Position numbers and translations under genes: made by a program | NCBI GenBank assembly: GCA_027068975.1 | Contig: JALXFN010000024.1 | Coordinates: 1 to 24,620, forward strand | Direction: 5' to 3' | DNA from: Campylobacteraceae bacterium | Lineage (GTDB): Bacteria > Campylobacterota > Campylobacteria > Campylobacterales > Sulfurovaceae | DNA length: 24,620 bases | Shown: piece by piece, positions 5,314 through 17,910 of the stretch | How the letters are laid out: each line of letters begins with the position of its first letter | Position numbering within the stretch: position 1 is the first letter of the stretch | The notes under the pieces: generated by a model | What the model saw: the letters and a program-made list of their open reading frames with translations, nothing else | Told to the model about the DNA's origin: nothing | The model's database searches: none

Positions 5314-6477
5314 TTAATCCTCTAGTTTTTTTCCAAAAATCAATACTTTGAAAAATCTACTTCCCCATACACCGAACATGACCATCCATACCGTTAATGT
5401 TATATCAAAAAAGACAAGGAAGTTCCATGAGTTTGCAATGGCTAAAGAAGTTAGGATTCTCATCACTACAACAACTTGTGTCCAGTAAAACAGAATGGTA
5501 GTTAATCTATCTGCTCTCATTATGTTTCCAGAGTGACCAAGAGTTACTCTGGTTCCAAAACCGATAAGCATGGTAAAGAAAAATCCTAGTACTAAAACAT
5601 GTATATCTAGTGATAAAAAGTTTGTACCATTCATAAGTGAAAGAAGGTTTGTGATACTTGCCAGTGCAAATGCTACAGGTACCCAATAGAGGGCAATAAG
5701 TAAAATCCATATTAAGGGATTAGGGTTAGGTAGAGGTAGCTTCCATTGCCATAACTCTTTTCCTATCAAATATGCTAGAAGTATATCAGCTAAAAATGAT
5801 GAGCTTGGTTGAATGGTTTCTAAAACAACATGTAAAACAATAAGACCAATGATGACTTTAAAACGTTCTTTGTTTTTTATAACAGTTGTATGTGAAAAAA
5901 ATGGAACCATACGTTGAGCAACTGCAAAGATAACAATAAATAAGTAGAGGTAAATAGCAAGTTGTATAGCGAATTGATAGAGGGATGGTAACCCTATAGC
6001 CAAGATAAATAAGAGATGAGAAAATAGACCAAATGCCATACCTATTAATATCCACTCTTGGTCTTCCTTGTTTTCATGTACTGAACTTTTGTAGACATTA
6101 AGTAAAATCTTAATAGAGAGTATATGTCCTAAAAACATAAGAGCCATACCTATTACAAGTAGTGAAGTCGAAAAAAATATACCAATTTGATAAAAAATAA
6201 AAGCTACAATAAACATCCAAAATACGGTCATGTATTTTTGTTGAGCTATTATCTCTGTCCCTGAAAATCTTGGAAATGTAGTAAATAAAAATGCTAAAAA
6301 TGCAGGAGTAAAAAGCATATAAATAAGAGAATACGCATGATAGTCAATAGCTGAAATTTGACTGGGTAAAAACCCTTTTAATAGTAGCATAAAAATAAAC
6401 ATAGAGACAATTGCATTAACAAAAGCTAAAACAAAAAAAGGTTGATGAGGTTGGGAAAAGAAATAATGCTTATTCAT
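5314..6477 (-). CDS. Polytopic membrane protein, probably NnrS family (NO-response heme-copper membrane protein)
   Basis: 387 aa with roughly 12 predicted TM helices. The N-terminal HQPFFVLAF resembles the NnrS PFRLFF motif. Conserved His residues sit in TM segments. The assignment is tentative. Confidence 0.4.
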   Translation of the reverse strand: MNKHYFFSQPHQPFFVLAFVNAIVSMFIFMLLLKGFLPSQISAIDYHAYSLIYMLFTPAFLAFLFTTFPRFSGTEIIAQQKYMTVFWMFIVAFIFYQIGIFFSTSLLVIGMALMFLGHILSIKILLNVYKSSVHENKEDQEWILIGMAFGLFSHLLFILAIGLPSLYQFAIQLAIYLYLFIVIFAVAQRMVPFFSHTTVIKNKERFKVIIGLIVLHVVLETIQPSSSFLADILLAYLIGKELWQWKLPLPNPNPLIWILLIALYWVPVAFALASITNLLSLMNGTNFLSLDIHVLVLGFFFTMLIGFGTRVTLGHSGNIMRADRLTTILFYWTQVVVVMRILTSLAIANSWNFLVFFDITLTVWMVMFGVWGSRFFKVLIFGKKLED

Positions 6478-11766: not shown

Positions 11767-11793
11767 GGTTAAGATATAGGATACATCTTAACC
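11767..11793. terminator. Bidirectional terminator hairpin between convergent argS and htpX
   Basis: 9-bp stem GGTTAAGAT / ATCTTAACC with 9-nt loop. Followed by TTTTAG on the plus strand. The htpX stop codon lies inside the 3' arm. Confidence 0.5.
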
Positions 11794-12624
11794 TTTTAGC
11801 ATTTCTAGTCTCTCAATTCTCTGTTCAGTACTAGGATGGGTACTAAAGAGCTGTTTCATAGAGAAATCTTTCCCTGTGAAGGGATTGATAATAAACATAT
11901 GAGCGGTCTGTGGCTCTGCCTCATGCATGACCATACCTCTGGCATAGTGGTCAAGTTTTTGTAAAGCACTCTGTAGCCACTCTGGATGACCTGTTATTCT
12001 TGCAGCACCTTCATCTGCCATAAACTCTCTGTTTCTGCTCACCGTCATCTGAATGATGGTCGCAGCCATTGGCATAATGAACATTAATGCCATCATTACA
12101 ATAGGGTTTGGTCTTTCATCATCACTACTACCACCAAAAAACATTCCAAAGTTTGCCAACATAGCAATGGCTCCTGAAATGGTTGCTGTAATGGTTCCTA
12201 CAAGCATATCATAATGTTTAATATGGCTCAACTCATGAGCAATGACAGCTTCAACCTCATCTTCTGTTAAGAGTTCTAATAGTCCTTCTGTCACAGCCAC
12301 TACAGCGTGTTCATAGTCACGCCCTGTTGCAAAAGCATTGGGTACTTGGTCAGGAATAATGTAGAGCTGAGGCATTGGTAGCTTAGCTTTTTTTGTCAAT
12401 CTATCCATAATTGCATACAATCCATGGGCTGAATTTCTATCTACAGGAATTGCATTGTAATGTTTCAAAACCTGCTCATGACTGTAAAAATAGGCATAAA
12501 AGTTCATTCCTATAGCAGCCAAAAAAGCAATTATCATTCCTGTTTGACCAGCAATTAACCCACCAAACCAAATAAAAAGGAGGGTTAATCCTGTCATAAG
12601 TACATACGTTTTAAATTGTTCCAT
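11788..12624 (-). CDS. htpX: Zinc metalloprotease HtpX (M48 family)
   Basis: HEXXH motif [11 protein letters not shown]-terminal TM helices and the M48 architecture. Length 278 aa. Confidence 0.85.
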
Positions 12625-12652
12625 TGATTAATCTCCTTTTAATGGTTCTATT

Positions 12653-13162
12653 TTATTTCTTTTTAGGTATTGTAATGGTTAATACCCCATTTTTATATTC
12701 ACTTTTATACTTTACTGCATCAGCATCTTTAGGTAGTGTCATACCTCGTTGAACCATACCAACATGTCTCTCTTGGTGTATGATTTTATCACCCTCTTTT
12801 TGCTCTTTTTGGGTTTCACTCTTAGCTTGGACACTTAGGTAGTTATCTTTAACATCGATTTTGATGCTCTTTTCATCCATACCTGCTAAATCCATTTTTA
12901 ACTCATAGTTGTCCCCTTTGTCTACCAGATCGGTATTGGGTTTAAATGAGAAGCCTTTAGAAAAGTTTGGCTCAATTGCTACACCTTTAAAAGCTTTGTT
13001 CCTAAACTCTGCAAAAGCTCGGTCCATCTCCTCTTGCATCTTTTGAAAGTGTTGAAATATTGGGTCATTGGCAAAAGGATTTTTGGTTAAATTTGTATCT
13101 GCTTGTATAGCTACCATTGGCAAAGTAGCCAAAAGTAGGGTTTTTAAGATTCTATTTTTCAA
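12653..13162 (-). CDS. Hsp20/alpha-crystallin family protein with a Sec signal peptide (predicted periplasmic small heat-shock protein). TTG start.
   Basis: N-terminal MKNRILKTLLLATLPMVAIQA-DT has the n/h/c regions and an AxA cleavage site of a signal peptide. The ACD core is KGDNYELKMDLAGMDEKSIKIDVKDNYLSVQAKSE...GVLTITIPKK. It starts at TTG with GGAG 7 nt upstream, 11 nt after the stop of the preceding Hsp20. Confidence 0.65.
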   Translation of the reverse strand: MKNRILKTLLLATLPMVAIQADTNLTKNPFANDPIFQHFQKMQEEMDRAFAEFRNKAFKGVAIEPNFSKGFSFKPNTDLVDKGDNYELKMDLAGMDEKSIKIDVKDNYLSVQAKSETQKEQKEGDKIIHQERHVGMVQRGMTLPKDADAVKYKSEYKNGVLTITIPKKK

Positions 13163-13173
13163 AGTTATTCTCC

Positions 13174-13617
13174 TTATTTAATGGAAATGTTACGTGCCTT
13201 TCTTGACTCTTCTTTTTCTAGTGAAATGTAGAGTCTACCATCTTCATAGTTGGCTGAGATTTTCTCTCTGTCCACATCTTTTGGTAAGACAAAACTTCGA
13301 GAGATAAGTCCATAACTACTTTCACAAAGATAGTAATCTTCCTCTTTCACTTCCTCTTTCGTTCTGCGTATTGCATTGACAGTCAGATAGTCATCTTCGA
13401 TTTTTAATTCTATCTCATCTTTATTAACGCCTGGTAAATCAATTTCAATGTCATAGGTATCAGAGCTATGTTTTGCAAAGTTTGCCAAAGGAAGATGTCT
13501 TGCTACATTTCCTAATGCCTCTTTAGTAACCTCTAAACCTTTTTCAACCTTCTCTTCAACAGCATTTACCAACTCTTTTCCATTTTCAATAATTTTATCT
13601 TTTGTTATACTCATCAT
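13174..13617 (-). CDS. Small heat-shock protein, Hsp20 family (cytoplasmic)
   Basis: ACD motifs YDIEIDLPGVNKDEIELKIEDDYLTVNA ... GRLYISLEKE. A strong RBS AAGGAG lies 5 nt before the ATGATG at 13617. The track ORF's 13641 start is probably too long. Confidence 0.8.
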   Translation of the reverse strand: MMSITKDKIIENGKELVNAVEEKVEKGLEVTKEALGNVARHLPLANFAKHSSDTYDIEIDLPGVNKDEIELKIEDDYLTVNAIRRTKEEVKEEDYYLCESSYGLISRSFVLPKDVDREKISANYEDGRLYISLEKEESRKARNISIK

Positions 13618-13627
13618 TGACTCCTTA

Positions 13628-14065
13628 TTACTTAATCTCAATTTTTTTGCTTGAAGTATCTATTTTTAGTTTTGGAATGGTAATCTCTAAAATTCCATTA
13701 ATAAATTCAGCCTCAATATTTGAAGTGTCTACTCTCTCTGGAAGTGTGAAACTTCTTGAAAAGAGACCATAACGACTCTCTACCTTATGGTAGTCTTCAT
13801 CTTTTACCTCTTCTCTCACATTTCTTTCCCCTGAAATGGTCAAGACATTTCCATCGACCTTAATGTCAACATTCTCTTTTTTAACACCAGGAAGCTCAAC
13901 TTCAATATGGTAATTGTCTTCTGTCTCACGGGTATTTACCTTTGGACGAAAATCAACTACTTCTTGTTCTGACGCTGCTTGTTCACCAATGGTGTTTATA
14001 ATTGTATTTACAAGGTCAAAACTCTTTCTAATGTCATTAAATGGGGTGTATTGTTTTACTATCAT
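13628..14065 (-). CDS. Small heat-shock protein, Hsp20 family (cytoplasmic)
   Basis: ACD motifs YHIEVELPGVKKENVDIKVDGNVLTISGER ... GILEITIPK. AAGGA RBS 7 nt upstream of the ATG. Confidence 0.8.
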   Translation of the reverse strand: MIVKQYTPFNDIRKSFDLVNTIINTIGEQAASEQEVVDFRPKVNTRETEDNYHIEVELPGVKKENVDIKVDGNVLTISGERNVREEVKDEDYHKVESRYGLFSRSFTLPERVDTSNIEAEFINGILEITIPKLKIDTSSKKIEIK

Positions 14066-14823: not shown

Positions 14824-15549
14824 CTAATTTAAAAGCAGTTGTTCTGTATTTTCAAGTAACTTTTTAACATCTTTTACATAGATGTTTTTACGCTGGTTTT
14901 CAATCACATTTTCAGCCTCTAACTCTTTTAAGTGTCGCTCAACCACATTACGAACCGTTCCTAGAAGTTTAGCTATTTCTGTTTTTGAGAGGTTTTGAAG
15001 CAGTTGGTAGTAGTGTGCATCATTAGGGTTGATATTTTGAAGTAAGAGCTTGGAGAGACGCTCAGAGGTAGAATAAAGAGACAAATCAGAAGCCAACTCT
15101 TCTGTATGACGCATTTGAGAGGCGATGTAAGGGAAAAAGTGCTGATTAAACTTCTCATTGGTTTTTAGCCATTCACGCACTTTGGCAATGGGCAGTTCTA
15201 ATACTTCTGAACTTTCTAAAACTTCATAAAGAACATCATGAGGTTTTCCATCAAGCAAGATGAGCGTATCAAACATATCCCCAGCACGATAGACAAAGAG
15301 TGTCTGCTCTTTAGCATTTTCAAAATTTATTTGAAAACTTTTAATTTTCCCCTTAAGTACTATGTAGAAATATTTTGAAAGCTCTCCATTCAGAAAAGGG
15401 GTCTCTTTTTTCTTAAAAGAGACTATTTTACCATATTGTAAAAACTGCTCTTCAAAACTTTGCTCTAAATCTTTAAAAATTTCTATTCCATAGTGTTGCA
15501 TTTTATCTCTTTTGTTCTTTTTGTTTTTAAATTTGTATATTATATCCAT
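14824..15549 (-). CDS. Crp/Fnr-family transcriptional regulator
   Basis: N-terminal cNMP-binding-like beta-roll region, and a C-terminal Crp-type HTH (SKTEIAKLLGTVRNVVERHLKELEAENVI). Confidence 0.7.
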   Translation of the reverse strand: MDIIYKFKNKKNKRDKMQHYGIEIFKDLEQSFEEQFLQYGKIVSFKKKETPFLNGELSKYFYIVLKGKIKSFQINFENAKEQTLFVYRAGDMFDTLILLDGKPHDVLYEVLESSEVLELPIAKVREWLKTNEKFNQHFFPYIASQMRHTEELASDLSLYSTSERLSKLLLQNINPNDAHYYQLLQNLSKTEIAKLLGTVRNVVERHLKELEAENVIENQRKNIYVKDVKKLLENTEQLLLN

Positions 15550-15624: not shown

Positions 15625-16653
15625 CTATATAAATTCTATTTTTTTTATGACAAACCGACACCCACCCTCATAAGAATCATCTAAAAATAATTCATAACTA
15701 TTGTTTTCAGCCAAATTACGAGCAATGGAAAGTCCCAAACCAAAACCAGACTTCTCTCGGTTACGACTCTCATCTAAAGCAACAAAAGGTTCAAAAATAC
15801 GCTCTCTATCTTTTTTTACTATGCCTATGCCTGTATCTTGCACACTAATAGAGTTTTTATCTGCTATCAACGTAATTGTTCCATTTTTAGTGTACTTGGT
15901 TGCATTATGCAAAAGGTTTACCAAAATCTTTTTAAGTGCCATACGATTAAACTCTATCTGCAAAGTATCAGAGATAAGACACTTTAACTCAACAGGTTTT
16001 TCAACGCGAATCAAAGGACAAACATCAGCATGTATAAACGCTTTTAACAAAAATGTCTCTTTGCTCTCTACAAGCTCTTGAGACTCAATATAGCCAATAA
16101 CATCAGATGAGAGTTCATTGATGTAGGCTGTCTCTTTTTTTAATATACCAATGGCTCTTGGCATATCTTCTTCGCCTATCATGTTGTCTTCAAACTCTTC
16201 AAGATAACCATCAATAATGGTCAAGGGTGTTTTAATGTCATGAGAGAGTGAAAGTATGAGATTGTTTAAATTTTTATTTCTATTTTTTAACTCCAAAATT
16301 GAGTGTTCTAAACGCGTAGAGAGTTGCTTGATAGATGTATGGATATGGTTAATATCGACTATTTTGTCCGTATAATTCTCTTCTAAAAAACGATTTTCAC
16401 TAATGGCATCTAAACGCTGATTAATCGCCTCAAACTTCTTAGAAAAGTAGTTCCCCATAAAGTAACTAAAAAGTCCAATAAGGGGTAAGGTCACTAAAAT
16501 AGTTAGCCCTATCTCTGAGAGCATGGTCATACCAATAGGCACATCTATGATGAGGTAGGTCATAATGGCTGTAAACAGGGCAATCAAAAACCCAGCCAAA
16601 CCATACATAAGTATCAAAAAGTTTTTAATCTTCATAAAGTGTATACCCCACAT
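15625..16653 (-). CDS. Sensor histidine kinase (HisKA + HATPase_c) with two TM helices and essentially no periplasmic loop
   Basis: H-box LSHDIKTPLTII, N-box LLHNATKYT and G-box QDTGIGI. The two N-terminal TMs are separated by only ~10 residues. The start may be M7 or M16. It overlaps the upstream RR gene end by 11-29 nt. Confidence 0.8.
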   Translation of the reverse strand: MWGIHFMKIKNFLILMYGLAGFLIALFTAIMTYLIIDVPIGMTMLSEIGLTILVTLPLIGLFSYFMGNYFSKKFEAINQRLDAISENRFLEENYTDKIVDINHIHTSIKQLSTRLEHSILELKNRNKNLNNLILSLSHDIKTPLTIIDGYLEEFEDNMIGEEDMPRAIGILKKETAYINELSSDVIGYIESQELVESKETFLLKAFIHADVCPLIRVEKPVELKCLISDTLQIEFNRMALKKILVNLLHNATKYTKNGTITLIADKNSISVQDTGIGIVKKDRERIFEPFVALDESRNREKSGFGLGLSIARNLAENNSYELFLDDSYEGGCRFVIKKIEFI

Positions 16654-17308
16654 TTCTTACCGTTTTAATTATCTCTTCATCACTATAAAGAGCAATTTTT
16701 TTACGCAGTTGATAGATATGTGTACCTATCCCTTTTTTATCGATGTTTCCAATGTCATTATTGTACAATATCTGCGACAACTCCTCTTTAGAAAAGACCT
16801 TTTTAGGAGTAGAGTAAAGTGTCTCTAAAATAGTATATTCACTAACCGTTAAAGTTAAAGGGTGATTTTGAACATAAAAACGTTTTAACGCTTCATGATG
16901 CTCTAACATGGCAAAAGTAACATCTTCTACTTGTGTTAACTCAGAGCGTCTTTTTAGTAAAGAGCTTATCTTCAAAGCCACCATCTTAGGAGAAAAAGGT
17001 TTAGCAATATAGTCATCAGCCCCAAGAGCGTAAGCTTTCTCTCTTTTTTCGTCAATATCCAATGCAGAGACAATAATAATGAGTGAATCTTTATGCCGTT
17101 TACGTACCTCATCACAAAGGCTTAAGCCATCAACTGAGGGCAACATAATGTCCAAAGTAAGTAAATCAAAACGTTCATTTTGAATCAACTTTAATGCCTC
17201 ACCTCCATTGTACGCCACACTTACATCATAAATCTCAGGCTCTAACCGATTTTGGATAAGCTTGACAATCTCAGGTTCATCTTCGACGATTAGTATTTTG
17301 TATTTCAT
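16625..17308 (-). CDS. OmpR/PhoB-family response regulator
   Basis: Receiver domain ILIVEDEPEI...DLLTLDIMLP...KP plus a C-terminal winged-helix domain (GYTLY). Confidence 0.85.
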   Translation of the reverse strand: MKYKILIVEDEPEIVKLIQNRLEPEIYDVSVAYNGGEALKLIQNERFDLLTLDIMLPSVDGLSLCDEVRKRHKDSLIIIVSALDIDEKREKAYALGADDYIAKPFSPKMVALKISSLLKRRSELTQVEDVTFAMLEHHEALKRFYVQNHPLTLTVSEYTILETLYSTPKKVFSKEELSQILYNNDIGNIDKKGIGTHIYQLRKKIALYSDEEIIKTVRNVGYTLYED

Positions 17309-17845
17309 CTATTCAAAACTGTTTTGTAATTTGGTAAACAAAAAGTCATTCTCTTTTGCCACAGAGTGACAAGCAATACAACCTTTAGTTCCTTTGTTCC
17401 ATGCTTCAAACTTACCATCTTTTTTAATAAACCTAGCATAACCCCAGTTGTCTCCATTGGCATCAAAGTTCTTTGAATCTTTCACCATATACTCCACTCT
17501 CTGAATTTTATCTGCTTCTAAAGCCTTAGGGAAAAGTTCCATCTTCTTAACCGACCAACCAATCTTAACGATTTTAGACCCCTCAGGCATCACTTTTAGT
17601 TTATCTTTCAAAGCATTATACCCAATAGGATTGGCTAAAATATAGCGTAGTTCATTTTTATCGGTTCTAAAATGGGTTGCGACTATTTTGTAGTCTGGGT
17701 AGCCCTCTATCATCTGAAAAGTTAAGTTGTTGTCAGGCATTTTTAACTTAGGTAACTTTGTGTTATGTGTTAAGTAGATGTCACTTGCGTAGGCTACTCC
17801 CACGATGAGAGTGGACAGTAGTGTGATTTTTGTTAGATTGTTCAT
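17309..17845 (-). CDS. Periplasmic monoheme c-type cytochrome, possibly cytochrome P460 / c'-beta-like, first gene of the operon with the RR and HK
   Basis: Signal peptide MNNLTKITLLSTLIVGVAYA-SD and a single CxxCH (CIACHS) near the C-terminus. Its stop abuts the RR start with no gap. Confidence 0.5.
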   Translation of the reverse strand: MNNLTKITLLSTLIVGVAYASDIYLTHNTKLPKLKMPDNNLTFQMIEGYPDYKIVATHFRTDKNELRYILANPIGYNALKDKLKVMPEGSKIVKIGWSVKKMELFPKALEADKIQRVEYMVKDSKNFDANGDNWGYARFIKKDGKFEAWNKGTKGCIACHSVAKENDFLFTKLQNSFE

Positions 17846-17883
17846 AATATGCTCCGTTTATATTTAATAAACAGAGTATATGA

Positions 17884-17910
17884 AGAGTTTATCAAGATTG
17901 TGTGAAGATT
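17884..17910 (-). promoter_or_regulatory. Candidate response-regulator binding site: three direct repeats AAGA(T/G)T spaced 10-11 bp, upstream of the cytochrome-RR-HK operon
   Basis: The plus strand reads AAGAGT (17884), AAGATT (17894) and AAGATT (17905), one helical turn apart, 40-60 nt upstream of the cytochrome start codon. Confidence 0.3.

Follow-up and report, generated by a model that had tools for sequence, protein, structure and literature searches.

A cytochrome P460 operon with a membrane-hairpin two-component system and a putative operator in vent Campylobacterota and Aquificota

We analysed a 24,620-nt stretch of DNA (hereafter the window; contig JALXFN010000024.1, assembly GCA_027068975.1) from a member of the Sulfurovaceae and found in it a three-gene operon predicted to encode an exported cytochrome P460, an OmpR/PhoB-family response regulator (RR) and a histidine kinase (HK) whose input region is a two-helix membrane hairpin. 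We interpret this operon as a dedicated, positively autoregulated two-component module, with a transcriptional output that consists of a catalytically competent periplasmic P460 and, where they are present, of the proteins c3 and c4 described below or other periplasmic redox proteins; we give this reading a probability of about 0.7. P460 stands first in line behind the putative regulator site, and its role as output is the only role that the data show directly. An earlier reading made from the letters of the window alone (the original prediction) had described a triad of cytochrome, regulator and kinase genes in this region, and all three are present there. The minus strand carries the whole operon, and motifs given for the mRNA strand are read accordingly.

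17845..17309, minus strand: cytochrome P460 gene (178 aa; open reading frame and Pfam)
17308..16625, minus strand: OmpR/PhoB-family response regulator gene (227 aa; open reading frame and Pfam)
16635..15625, minus strand: histidine kinase gene (336 aa from the likelier start; an alternative start at 16653 gives 342 aa)

The junctions between these genes support P460, RR and HK as one tightly coupled unit. As originally read from the sequence, the P460 stop codon directly abuts the regulator start codon with zero gap (TAG followed by ATG), and across the loci compared the P460-to-RR gap is 0–9 nt in 26 out of 29. The regulator and kinase genes overlap by 11 nt, or by 29 nt if the longer kinase start is used. 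The cytochrome gene of the window does not appear as a separate unit with its own promoter or terminator and unconserved linkage to the two-component genes. A consensus terminator scan found none inside the operon or right after it, and a consensus promoter scan of the window returned 20 promoter-like sites compared with 18 expected; both scans are uninformative here. In the papers searched at full text we found no prior description of P460 paired with a dedicated two-component system, and none that joined P460 with a two-component system, a histidine kinase, Sulfurimonas or related taxa. A 2025 review of the P460 family contains no discussion of regulation and no mention of a two-component operon (PMC11928373).

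The linkage of P460 with the hairpin kinase is supported across phyla and in both search directions. In the forward direction, a scan of a genome collection with a P460 alignment gave 60 loci, or 61 P460-centred sources including the window. By tblastn and clustering of open reading frames, 38 of these 61 sources contain a member of the RR family and 31 a member of the HK family. About 30 Campylobacterota loci have the order P460-RR-HK, with P460 53–97% identical to that of the window, and in six out of six Aquificota loci (L052–L057) RR-HK is divergent and directly upstream of P460. Eight Bacteroidota P460 loci and several Campylobacterota loci have no adjacent two-component system. The reverse search used the kinase hairpin motif T[YF]xII[DG][VET]PIG only, on metagenomes, and gave 72 loci. 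P460 lies within the unit in 51 of the 53 loci that are informative, and 47 of all 72 have the order P460-RR-HK. Eight loci that depart from this order were inspected one by one (L075, L097, L113, L114, L115, L122, L129 and L132, described below). Co-occurrence, which had been named as a check on the original prediction, shows that the triad recurs whether the search begins from P460 or from the kinase.

Five gene orders were seen in total, in Campylobacterota, Aquificota and one lineage without taxon assignment. Many Campylobacterota have the order c3-c4-P460-RR-HK, where c3 is a lipoprotein with Lipoprotein_15 repeats fused to a cytochrome c domain and c4 is a DUF5777 outer-membrane barrel. 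The order P460-SoxB-RR-HK occurs in one low-GC lineage (L115, 1508-3328; L122, 907-2682), with a bona fide thiosulfohydrolase SoxB (TIGR04486, 821 bits) between P460 and the regulator and the operator upstream of P460. RR-HK-P460 is found in L132 (3268-5547; 38% GC), together with an M. capsulatus-like P460 of a second P460 subfamily, and L039 (341-6513) is a divergent operon of a di-haem oxidoreductase, an outer-membrane protein, an unknown gene, RR and HK. In L075 (328-1661) the hairpin kinase begins 21 nt after P460 with no regulator gene between them, and L113 and L129 are cut by contig ends. Two loci, L097 (49-837) and L114 (884-1660), have an SBP_bac_11 (ModA/Sbp-like) periplasmic binding protein in the P460 slot before RR and the hairpin HK. 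The L114 gene for this protein has the operator 42 nt upstream, and no transporter genes were seen in these two short contigs.

The second line of evidence for the module is the putative operator, which was scored with a position weight matrix (PWM) and lies upstream of P460 with the following neighbours.

17889..17910, minus strand: putative regulator operator, a 22-bp bipartite site in 11-bp register, AATCTTCACAC AATCTTGATAA, at the -35 position (PWM score 30.6 bits)
17883..17888, minus strand: third hexamer ACTCTT, one helical turn further downstream, lineage-specific
17875..17880, minus strand: -10-like hexamer TATACT, 8 nt past the operator (read from sequence)
17852..17855, minus strand: GGAG ribosome-binding site, 6 nt before the P460 ATG (read from sequence)

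Three direct repeats spaced one helical turn apart had been proposed as a plausible regulator site. The repeats are there, and on the mRNA strand the hexamers read AATCTT (17910-17905), AATCTT (17899-17894) and ACTCTT (17888-17883), in an exact 11-bp register and 38–65 nt upstream of the P460 ATG. This three-repeat pattern occurs once in the window, and 100 dinucleotide shuffles contained no match to it. Relatives keep the first two repeats, but the third is lineage-specific. It is a second PWM match only in the window, in L014 and in the c3 promoter of L002; its bases are present in the close relative L001 but fall under the PWM reporting threshold, and in other loci the bases that separate the box from the -10 element are a spacer with no conservation. 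What the P460 upstream regions have in common is cATCTTCAtAcAATCTTGAtAA, followed after ~8 nt by TATACT or TATAAT. In most related promoters one or other of these hexamers has the same offset as in the window, and in most related loci a GGAG/AGGA-type motif stands in the corresponding place. With the number of repeats so reduced, the proposed site is now a conserved OmpR/PhoB-style putative operator.

The PWM was trained on 23 sites upstream of P460 genes, with c3-promoter sites left out as seeds. Across the 24.6-kb window it returned one site plus its one-turn shift. Equivalent sites in the genomic loci lie 33–50 nt upstream of the first operon gene, and high-scoring sites lie 33–47 nt upstream of c3 in the ten loci where c3-c4 precede P460. 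The 72 hairpin-selected metagenomic loci had 35 matches of at least 20 bits, compared with 0 in shuffled sequence, and 32 of these 35 sit 16–53 nt upstream of the start of P460, of c3 or, in RR-first operons, of the regulator. Altogether the cATCTTCAtAcAATCTTGAtAA box was found upstream of the first operon gene (16–53 nt) in about 70 related loci. None of the gene orders lacks it; L132 with RR-HK-P460 and L039 with its divergent operon have it too. A second regulator clade (43–50% identical) bears a variant box, AATCTTTAGAcAATCTCCACAA, and the Aquificota have another 11-bp-spaced repeat, GTTCAAG-N4-TTTCAAG, in the intergenic region between the divergent RR and P460. Of the DNA-binding proteins encoded nearby, the regulator alone recurs together with the box, and we infer that it binds the box and activates transcription. 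The WYL/DeoR and Crp/Fnr regulators encoded beside the operon were rejected as binders because L001 and L002 are the only relatives in which they stand near the box, and because the repeat is direct, not inverted.

The cytochrome itself is a genuine P460, catalytically competent by sequence criteria. It matches PF16694 (Cytochrome_P460) with 98.9 bits against a cut-off of 27 (E=3.6e-28), and the closest solved structure is Methylococcus capsulatus P460 (McP460; 6hiu/9hrk), with E about 1e-19 over residues 45-172. Cytochrome c'-beta chains align to the C-terminal third only, with E about 4e-06. The P460 fold was assigned by sequence homology, and the following features were located.

17845..17786, minus strand: signal peptide, residues 1-20, ending AYA before SD (by inspection)
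17566..17564, minus strand: codon of cross-link Lys94, aligned to McP460 Lys78
P460 protein, minus-strand gene: capping Arg67, aligned to McP460 Arg50
P460 protein, minus-strand gene: distal Glu118, aligned to McP460 Asp102
17380..17366, minus strand: CIACH (C156, C159 and H160 of 178 aa), the single CxxCH, near the C-terminus

P460 proteins have a single CxxCH near the C-terminus that supplies the proximal His, and they show a Soret signature at 440-460 nm. The cross-link residue of Nitrosomonas europaea P460 is Lys70, whereas cytochrome c'-beta, of the same fold, has Phe or Met there and no distal carboxylate. Hydroxylamine (NH2OH) oxidase activity needs the cross-link lysine, the distal carboxylate and the capping residue (McP460 Lys78, Asp102 and Arg50; PMC11928373, Table 2), and NH2OH and nitric oxide (NO) are the only demonstrated P460 substrates (PMC11928373). 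None of the 94 orthologues drawn from the 132 fetched loci departs from R67, K94, E118 or the CxxCH, with or without a two-component system next to the gene. We predict catalytic competence because the three residues for NH2OH oxidation and the CxxCH are all kept, and the aligned position of Lys94 predicts a cross-link to the haem. Since the cross-link lysine and the distal glutamate are both present, a cytochrome c'-beta identity is ruled out. The original prediction of an exported monoheme cytochrome with its CxxCH near the C-terminus agrees with the signal peptide and with CIACH at 156-160; of its "P460/c'-beta-like" description, only the P460 half survives. With the P460 proteins (CytL) of M. 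capsulatus and N. europaea the window protein has in common the Pfam family, the C-terminal CxxCH, the cross-link Lys, the capping Arg and the distal carboxylate. Compared with McP460, it has Glu rather than Asp at the carboxylate position and a conserved 24-residue N-terminal extension. Its host is a vent member of the Campylobacterota and neither a nitrifier nor a methanotroph, and its gene lies in an operon with a dedicated two-component system.

Genes that accompany P460 in relatives are consistent with an enzymatic role. In Aquificota two multihaem c554-like cytochromes follow RR-HK. In Bacteroidota (L045, L046, L049, L060) a lipoprotein-type P460 belongs to a conserved five-gene set with a small cytochrome c, a tRNA_anti-like OB-fold protein, YceI and a DUF5777 barrel, and with no two-component system. 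The cytochrome c fusions and the c554-like multihaem cytochromes are likely candidates for the electron acceptors of P460.

The regulator has Response_reg (E=1e-27) and Trans_reg_C (E=1.2e-16) domains in Pfam and keeps the phospho-acceptor Asp53, plus Ser81 and Lys102. By its domains and scores it is an OmpR/PhoB-family member and not a PhoB orthologue. PhoB and PhoR/PnpS are the top NCBIfam matches of the regulator and the kinase but are far below the equivalog cut-offs (154 vs 296 bits for PhoB, 107 vs 334 bits for PhoR), and these scores and the absence of a PAS domain rule out PhoBR orthology. The PhoR-PhoB system of Escherichia coli is nonetheless a useful comparison, as PhoR is a kinase without a periplasmic domain and its regulon includes the genes of the sensing partner (PstSCAB-PhoU). 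In the Pho box, direct repeats of 7 bp, set apart by spacers of 4 bp, take the place of the -35 element and lie about 10 bp away from the -10. The window operator is laid out in the same way, with the repeat ATCTTCA/ATCTTGA rather than the CTGTCAT of the Pho box. PhoR has a PAS domain and the Pho system has pst genes, whereas the window module has neither.

The kinase is the component that would receive the signal. Its sole Pfam domains are HisKA (E=2.2e-07; His132) and HATPase_c (E=1.3e-19); the Pfam scan gave no PAS match, and the 65-aa linker has no HAMP match. The N-terminus reads MKIKN, a first transmembrane helix (TM1, ~6-30), the loop DVPIGMTMLSE (31-41, 11 aa), a second helix (TM2, ~42-64) and SKKF. 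Two close helices with a loop of ~10 residues had been predicted, which hydropathy bears out with 11. The longer kinase start adds only six cytoplasmic residues and re-annotation therefore cannot create a periplasmic domain; neither start gives the kinase a larger one. Intramembrane-sensing histidine kinases are defined by two helices, a loop of under 25 residues and no other input domain. The predicted topology of the window kinase fits this definition, and we know of no description of the class in Campylobacterota. The input module and the longer kinase genes of a related sub-clade are as follows.

16444..16620, minus strand: kinase input module TM1-loop-TM2 (hydropathy; loop at 16545..16513)
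L004, 7216-9033: long-kinase gene of the Sulfurimonas sub-clade
L006, 7221-9014: long-kinase gene of the Sulfurimonas sub-clade

The hairpin is the best-kept non-catalytic part of the kinase, and the cytoplasmic linker is poorly kept. The family motif FTAxMTYxII[DG]xPIGxKMxxKI...LP..G..SY.G is held from Campylobacterota to Aquificota (for example L057, VKIIGIPIGKRMFTKI) and in L132, and to our knowledge its PIGxKM core has no described counterpart. The hairpin alignment contains no conserved His or Cys. In the lineage of the window, Thr and Glu replace two loop Lys residues, a variant seen in three sequences only. Searched with a profile of the 99-aa hairpin alignment, a protein database yielded three fragments only, which are uninformative on the breadth of the family. 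In the Sulfurimonas sub-clade (L004, L006 and probably L008 and L010) the kinase is 597–605 aa long, with a ~270-aa periplasmic domain (a weak dCache_3 match, E=0.0045) and HAMP. P460 and the box are the same there, the regulator is 56–60% identical and the kinase core 57–62% identical. In L004 and L006 this looks like a swap of the input module with P460, regulator and operator unchanged. The one fragment from the profile search that was examined more closely lies next to CRISPR-Cas genes: L133 (4001-4503) holds a 147-aa hairpin-only kinase remnant, a truncated gene, near a Cas9/Cas1/Cas2 locus.

In the mechanism that we propose, a signal at the interface of membrane and periplasm would be perceived by the kinase through the conserved two-helix hairpin, and the kinase would autophosphorylate at His132 and then phosphorylate Asp53 of the regulator. 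A regulator dimer would bind the two 11-bp-spaced direct repeats that stand in for a -35 element and activate a single transcript for P460, regulator and kinase. P460 would be exported, gain its c-type haem and the Lys94 cross-link, and oxidise or bind NH2OH/NO. Removal of NH2OH/NO would relieve the stress and most likely also shut the system off. As inducer we tentatively favour N-oxide/hydroxylamine (NH2OH/NO) stress, at less than even odds, because no other chemistry is known for P460, the orthologues do not vary in their active site, and the window holds NnrS and a Crp/Fnr regulator. That the hairpin perceives its signal directly may be only slightly less probable than an even chance, and that it does so through P460 as a co-sensor seems rather doubtful. 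The roles of target and co-sensor are not mutually exclusive; HbpS, CpxP and BceAB are each both target and modulator.

Several observations weigh against the module and mechanism as we have described them. In L115 and L122 the operon encloses soxB, and in L097 and L114 the binding protein, of molybdate/sulfate type, occupies the P460 slot; both variants hint at a sulfur or oxyanion signal over N-oxides. The box is assigned to the regulator by co-occurrence, and three Campylobacterota P460 loci (L011, L040, L041) have the box and no adjacent two-component system. Every related locus is from a metagenome-assembled genome or a metagenome contig. A structural model of P460, built on a 15-sequence alignment (at least 69% identical), has a predicted local distance difference test score of 50.5 and a predicted template-modelling score of 0.45, too poor for active-site geometry.

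How the signal reaches the kinase allows for different explanations. The hairpin itself may sense a membrane-borne or small periplasmic cue, as in kinases of the GraS, SaeS and DesK type, with P460 merely a regulated detoxifying enzyme. This explanation is possible, at somewhat under even odds. It accommodates the box in front of P460, the intact catalytic residues and the electron-transfer partners and outer-membrane barrels that are co-regulated in relatives, and the sub-clade with a periplasmic sensor domain in the kinase itself shows that a self-sensing kinase can drive the regulon. It is harder to reconcile with an 11-residue loop that has no metal or haem ligands and is improbable as a detector of NO or NH2OH, and with a near-obligate pairing of hairpin and P460 across phyla that is tighter than most kinase-target pairs.

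Alternatively, in an extension of the original prediction, P460 may be the ligand-binding input of the kinase, with its NO- or NH2OH-bound state or its redox state read by the PIGxKM hairpin, so that sensor and output would be one protein. In favour of this, the kinase has no input domain, and its hairpin is without a conserved His or Cys for a cofactor that could sense NO, NH2OH or redox state. The hairpin, and especially II[DG]xPIGxKM, is the part best kept outside the catalytic core from Campylobacterota to Aquificota, and P460 accompanies it in 51 out of 53 hairpin-selected loci, in five gene orders and with P460s of two subfamilies. The two exceptions among these loci hold SBP_bac_11, a classical type of kinase co-sensor, in the P460 slot behind the box. 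Adjacency, however, is equally expected of a sensor and of a dedicated target. P460 keeps its catalytic residues, and likely electron acceptors are encoded alongside it; Bacteroidota P460 orthologues have identical active-site residues and no two-component system, and the kinase of L004 and L006 has its own ~270-aa periplasmic module (weak dCache_3 match) and HAMP, while P460, RR and box are kept. On balance we consider a co-sensor role unlikely. The same holds for its extension, in which the hairpin would be a generic docking module that takes a periplasmic binding protein instead in some lineages.

A third explanation, that the module answers reduced sulfur or an oxyanion (thiosulfate, sulfite or sulfide) and that P460 has a sulfur-related or general redox role, draws on soxB inside the operon of L115 and L122 (TIGR04486, 821 bits), the ModA/Sbp-like protein in place of P460 in L097 and L114, the di-haem oxidoreductase within the L039 operon and hosts that are vent sulfur oxidisers, but it is improbable given that the demonstrated P460 substrates are NH2OH and NO only (PMC11928373), that the active-site triad for this chemistry is invariant, that NnrS and the Crp/Fnr regulator near the operon in the window fit nitrosative stress and that the soxB variant is limited to one lineage.

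The OmpR-family system SulRS comes from the same organism group as the window module. SulR of Sulfurimonas hydrogeniphila binds two direct repeats that overlap the -35 element, with a footprint from -51 to -17, and the layout of the window operator matches this footprint (PMC12936845). The extracellular domain of its kinase binds thiosulfate, the system is linked to soxABXY1Z1, and P460 is unmentioned (PMC12936845). The SulRS operator, TTTAYATTTAKKAGWTACAMTTA, differs from that of the window (PMC12936845). Identity with SulRS is ruled out by the other operator, the other kinase input and the sox linkage.

Other comparisons bear on whether an extracytoplasmic partner could signal to a kinase of this kind, beginning with the HbpS-SenS-SenR parallel of the original prediction, which holds as an analogy of logic and fails as homology. 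In Streptomyces reticuli the extracytoplasmic haem protein HbpS is controlled by the regulator SenR and also serves the kinase SenS as accessory sensor. Its haem is bound non-covalently and its gene is divergently transcribed; SenS has five membrane helices. The two systems are alike in that the gene for an extracytoplasmic haem protein lies beside a two-component system. They are set apart by these HbpS and SenS features, as the window cytochrome matches PF16694 only and its kinase has two helices rather than five. BceS-BceAB and LiaFSR of Firmicutes also couple a two-helix, short-loop kinase to a regulated partner that is exposed outside the cytoplasm. That partner is a membrane transporter or membrane protein from another phylum, whereas the partner in the window would be a soluble cytochrome. 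In H-NOX/HnoK and NosP/NahK, a stand-alone haem protein beside a kinase without a ligand-binding domain has NO as its ligand. H-NOX and NosP are cytoplasmic proteins with b-type haem and unrelated folds; the haem protein of the window is predicted to be periplasmic, with covalently bound haem, and is probably catalytic.

The role of P460 outside nitrifiers and methanotrophs is still an unsettled question in the field. Our results place the P460 of vent Campylobacterota and Aquificota under what is probably a dedicated, autoregulated switch with a defined putative operator. Such a switch could serve, through a promoter reporter and candidate inducers, as an experimental handle on the use of P460 in these organisms, with a bearing on the release of nitrous oxide (N2O) and NO in sulfidic denitrifying habitats. 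Our results also define a previously undescribed and strongly conserved hairpin input module, the signal mechanism of which is testable with three proteins. If a co-sensor role were true, a two-component system would for the first time have a P460 or c-type cytochrome as its co-sensor, with detector and detoxifier in one protein (flux-type sensing), and haem-based gas sensing would extend to the periplasm and to catalytic c-type haems.

Genes in the neighbourhood of the operon differ even among close relatives. Compared with L002, which is 94% identical, the window has no c3, no c4 and no 153-aa open reading frame, all three of which lie between the WYL regulator and P460 in L002. Between window 17846-17955 and L002 1535-4388, ~2.6 kb is absent from the window. 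The breakpoints fall in two paralogous box-containing promoters, which points to loss of the segment through recombination between these promoters, or to an insertion in the converse direction. The window promoter corresponds to the L002 c3 promoter joined to the L002 P460 leader. Other genes near the operon are as follows.

5314-6477, minus strand: NnrS gene, for a haem/copper membrane protein found in NO-stress regulons, 9 kb from the operon
14824-15549, minus strand: Crp/Fnr-family regulator gene, directly downstream of the kinase, kept only in the closest relatives
17956-18879, minus strand: DeoR-HTH + WYL + WCX regulator gene, directly upstream of the P460 promoter, kept in L001 and L002

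An SPFH/Band-7 gene upstream of the WYL regulator is matched in L001 only. Elsewhere in the window, three tandem HSP20 small heat-shock genes are followed by an M48 (HtpX-like) peptidase gene (11788-14065, minus strand), and an RtcB RNA ligase gene stands right before a gene for an RF-1-domain protein, as an RtcB/PrfH-like pair (21179-22846, plus strand).

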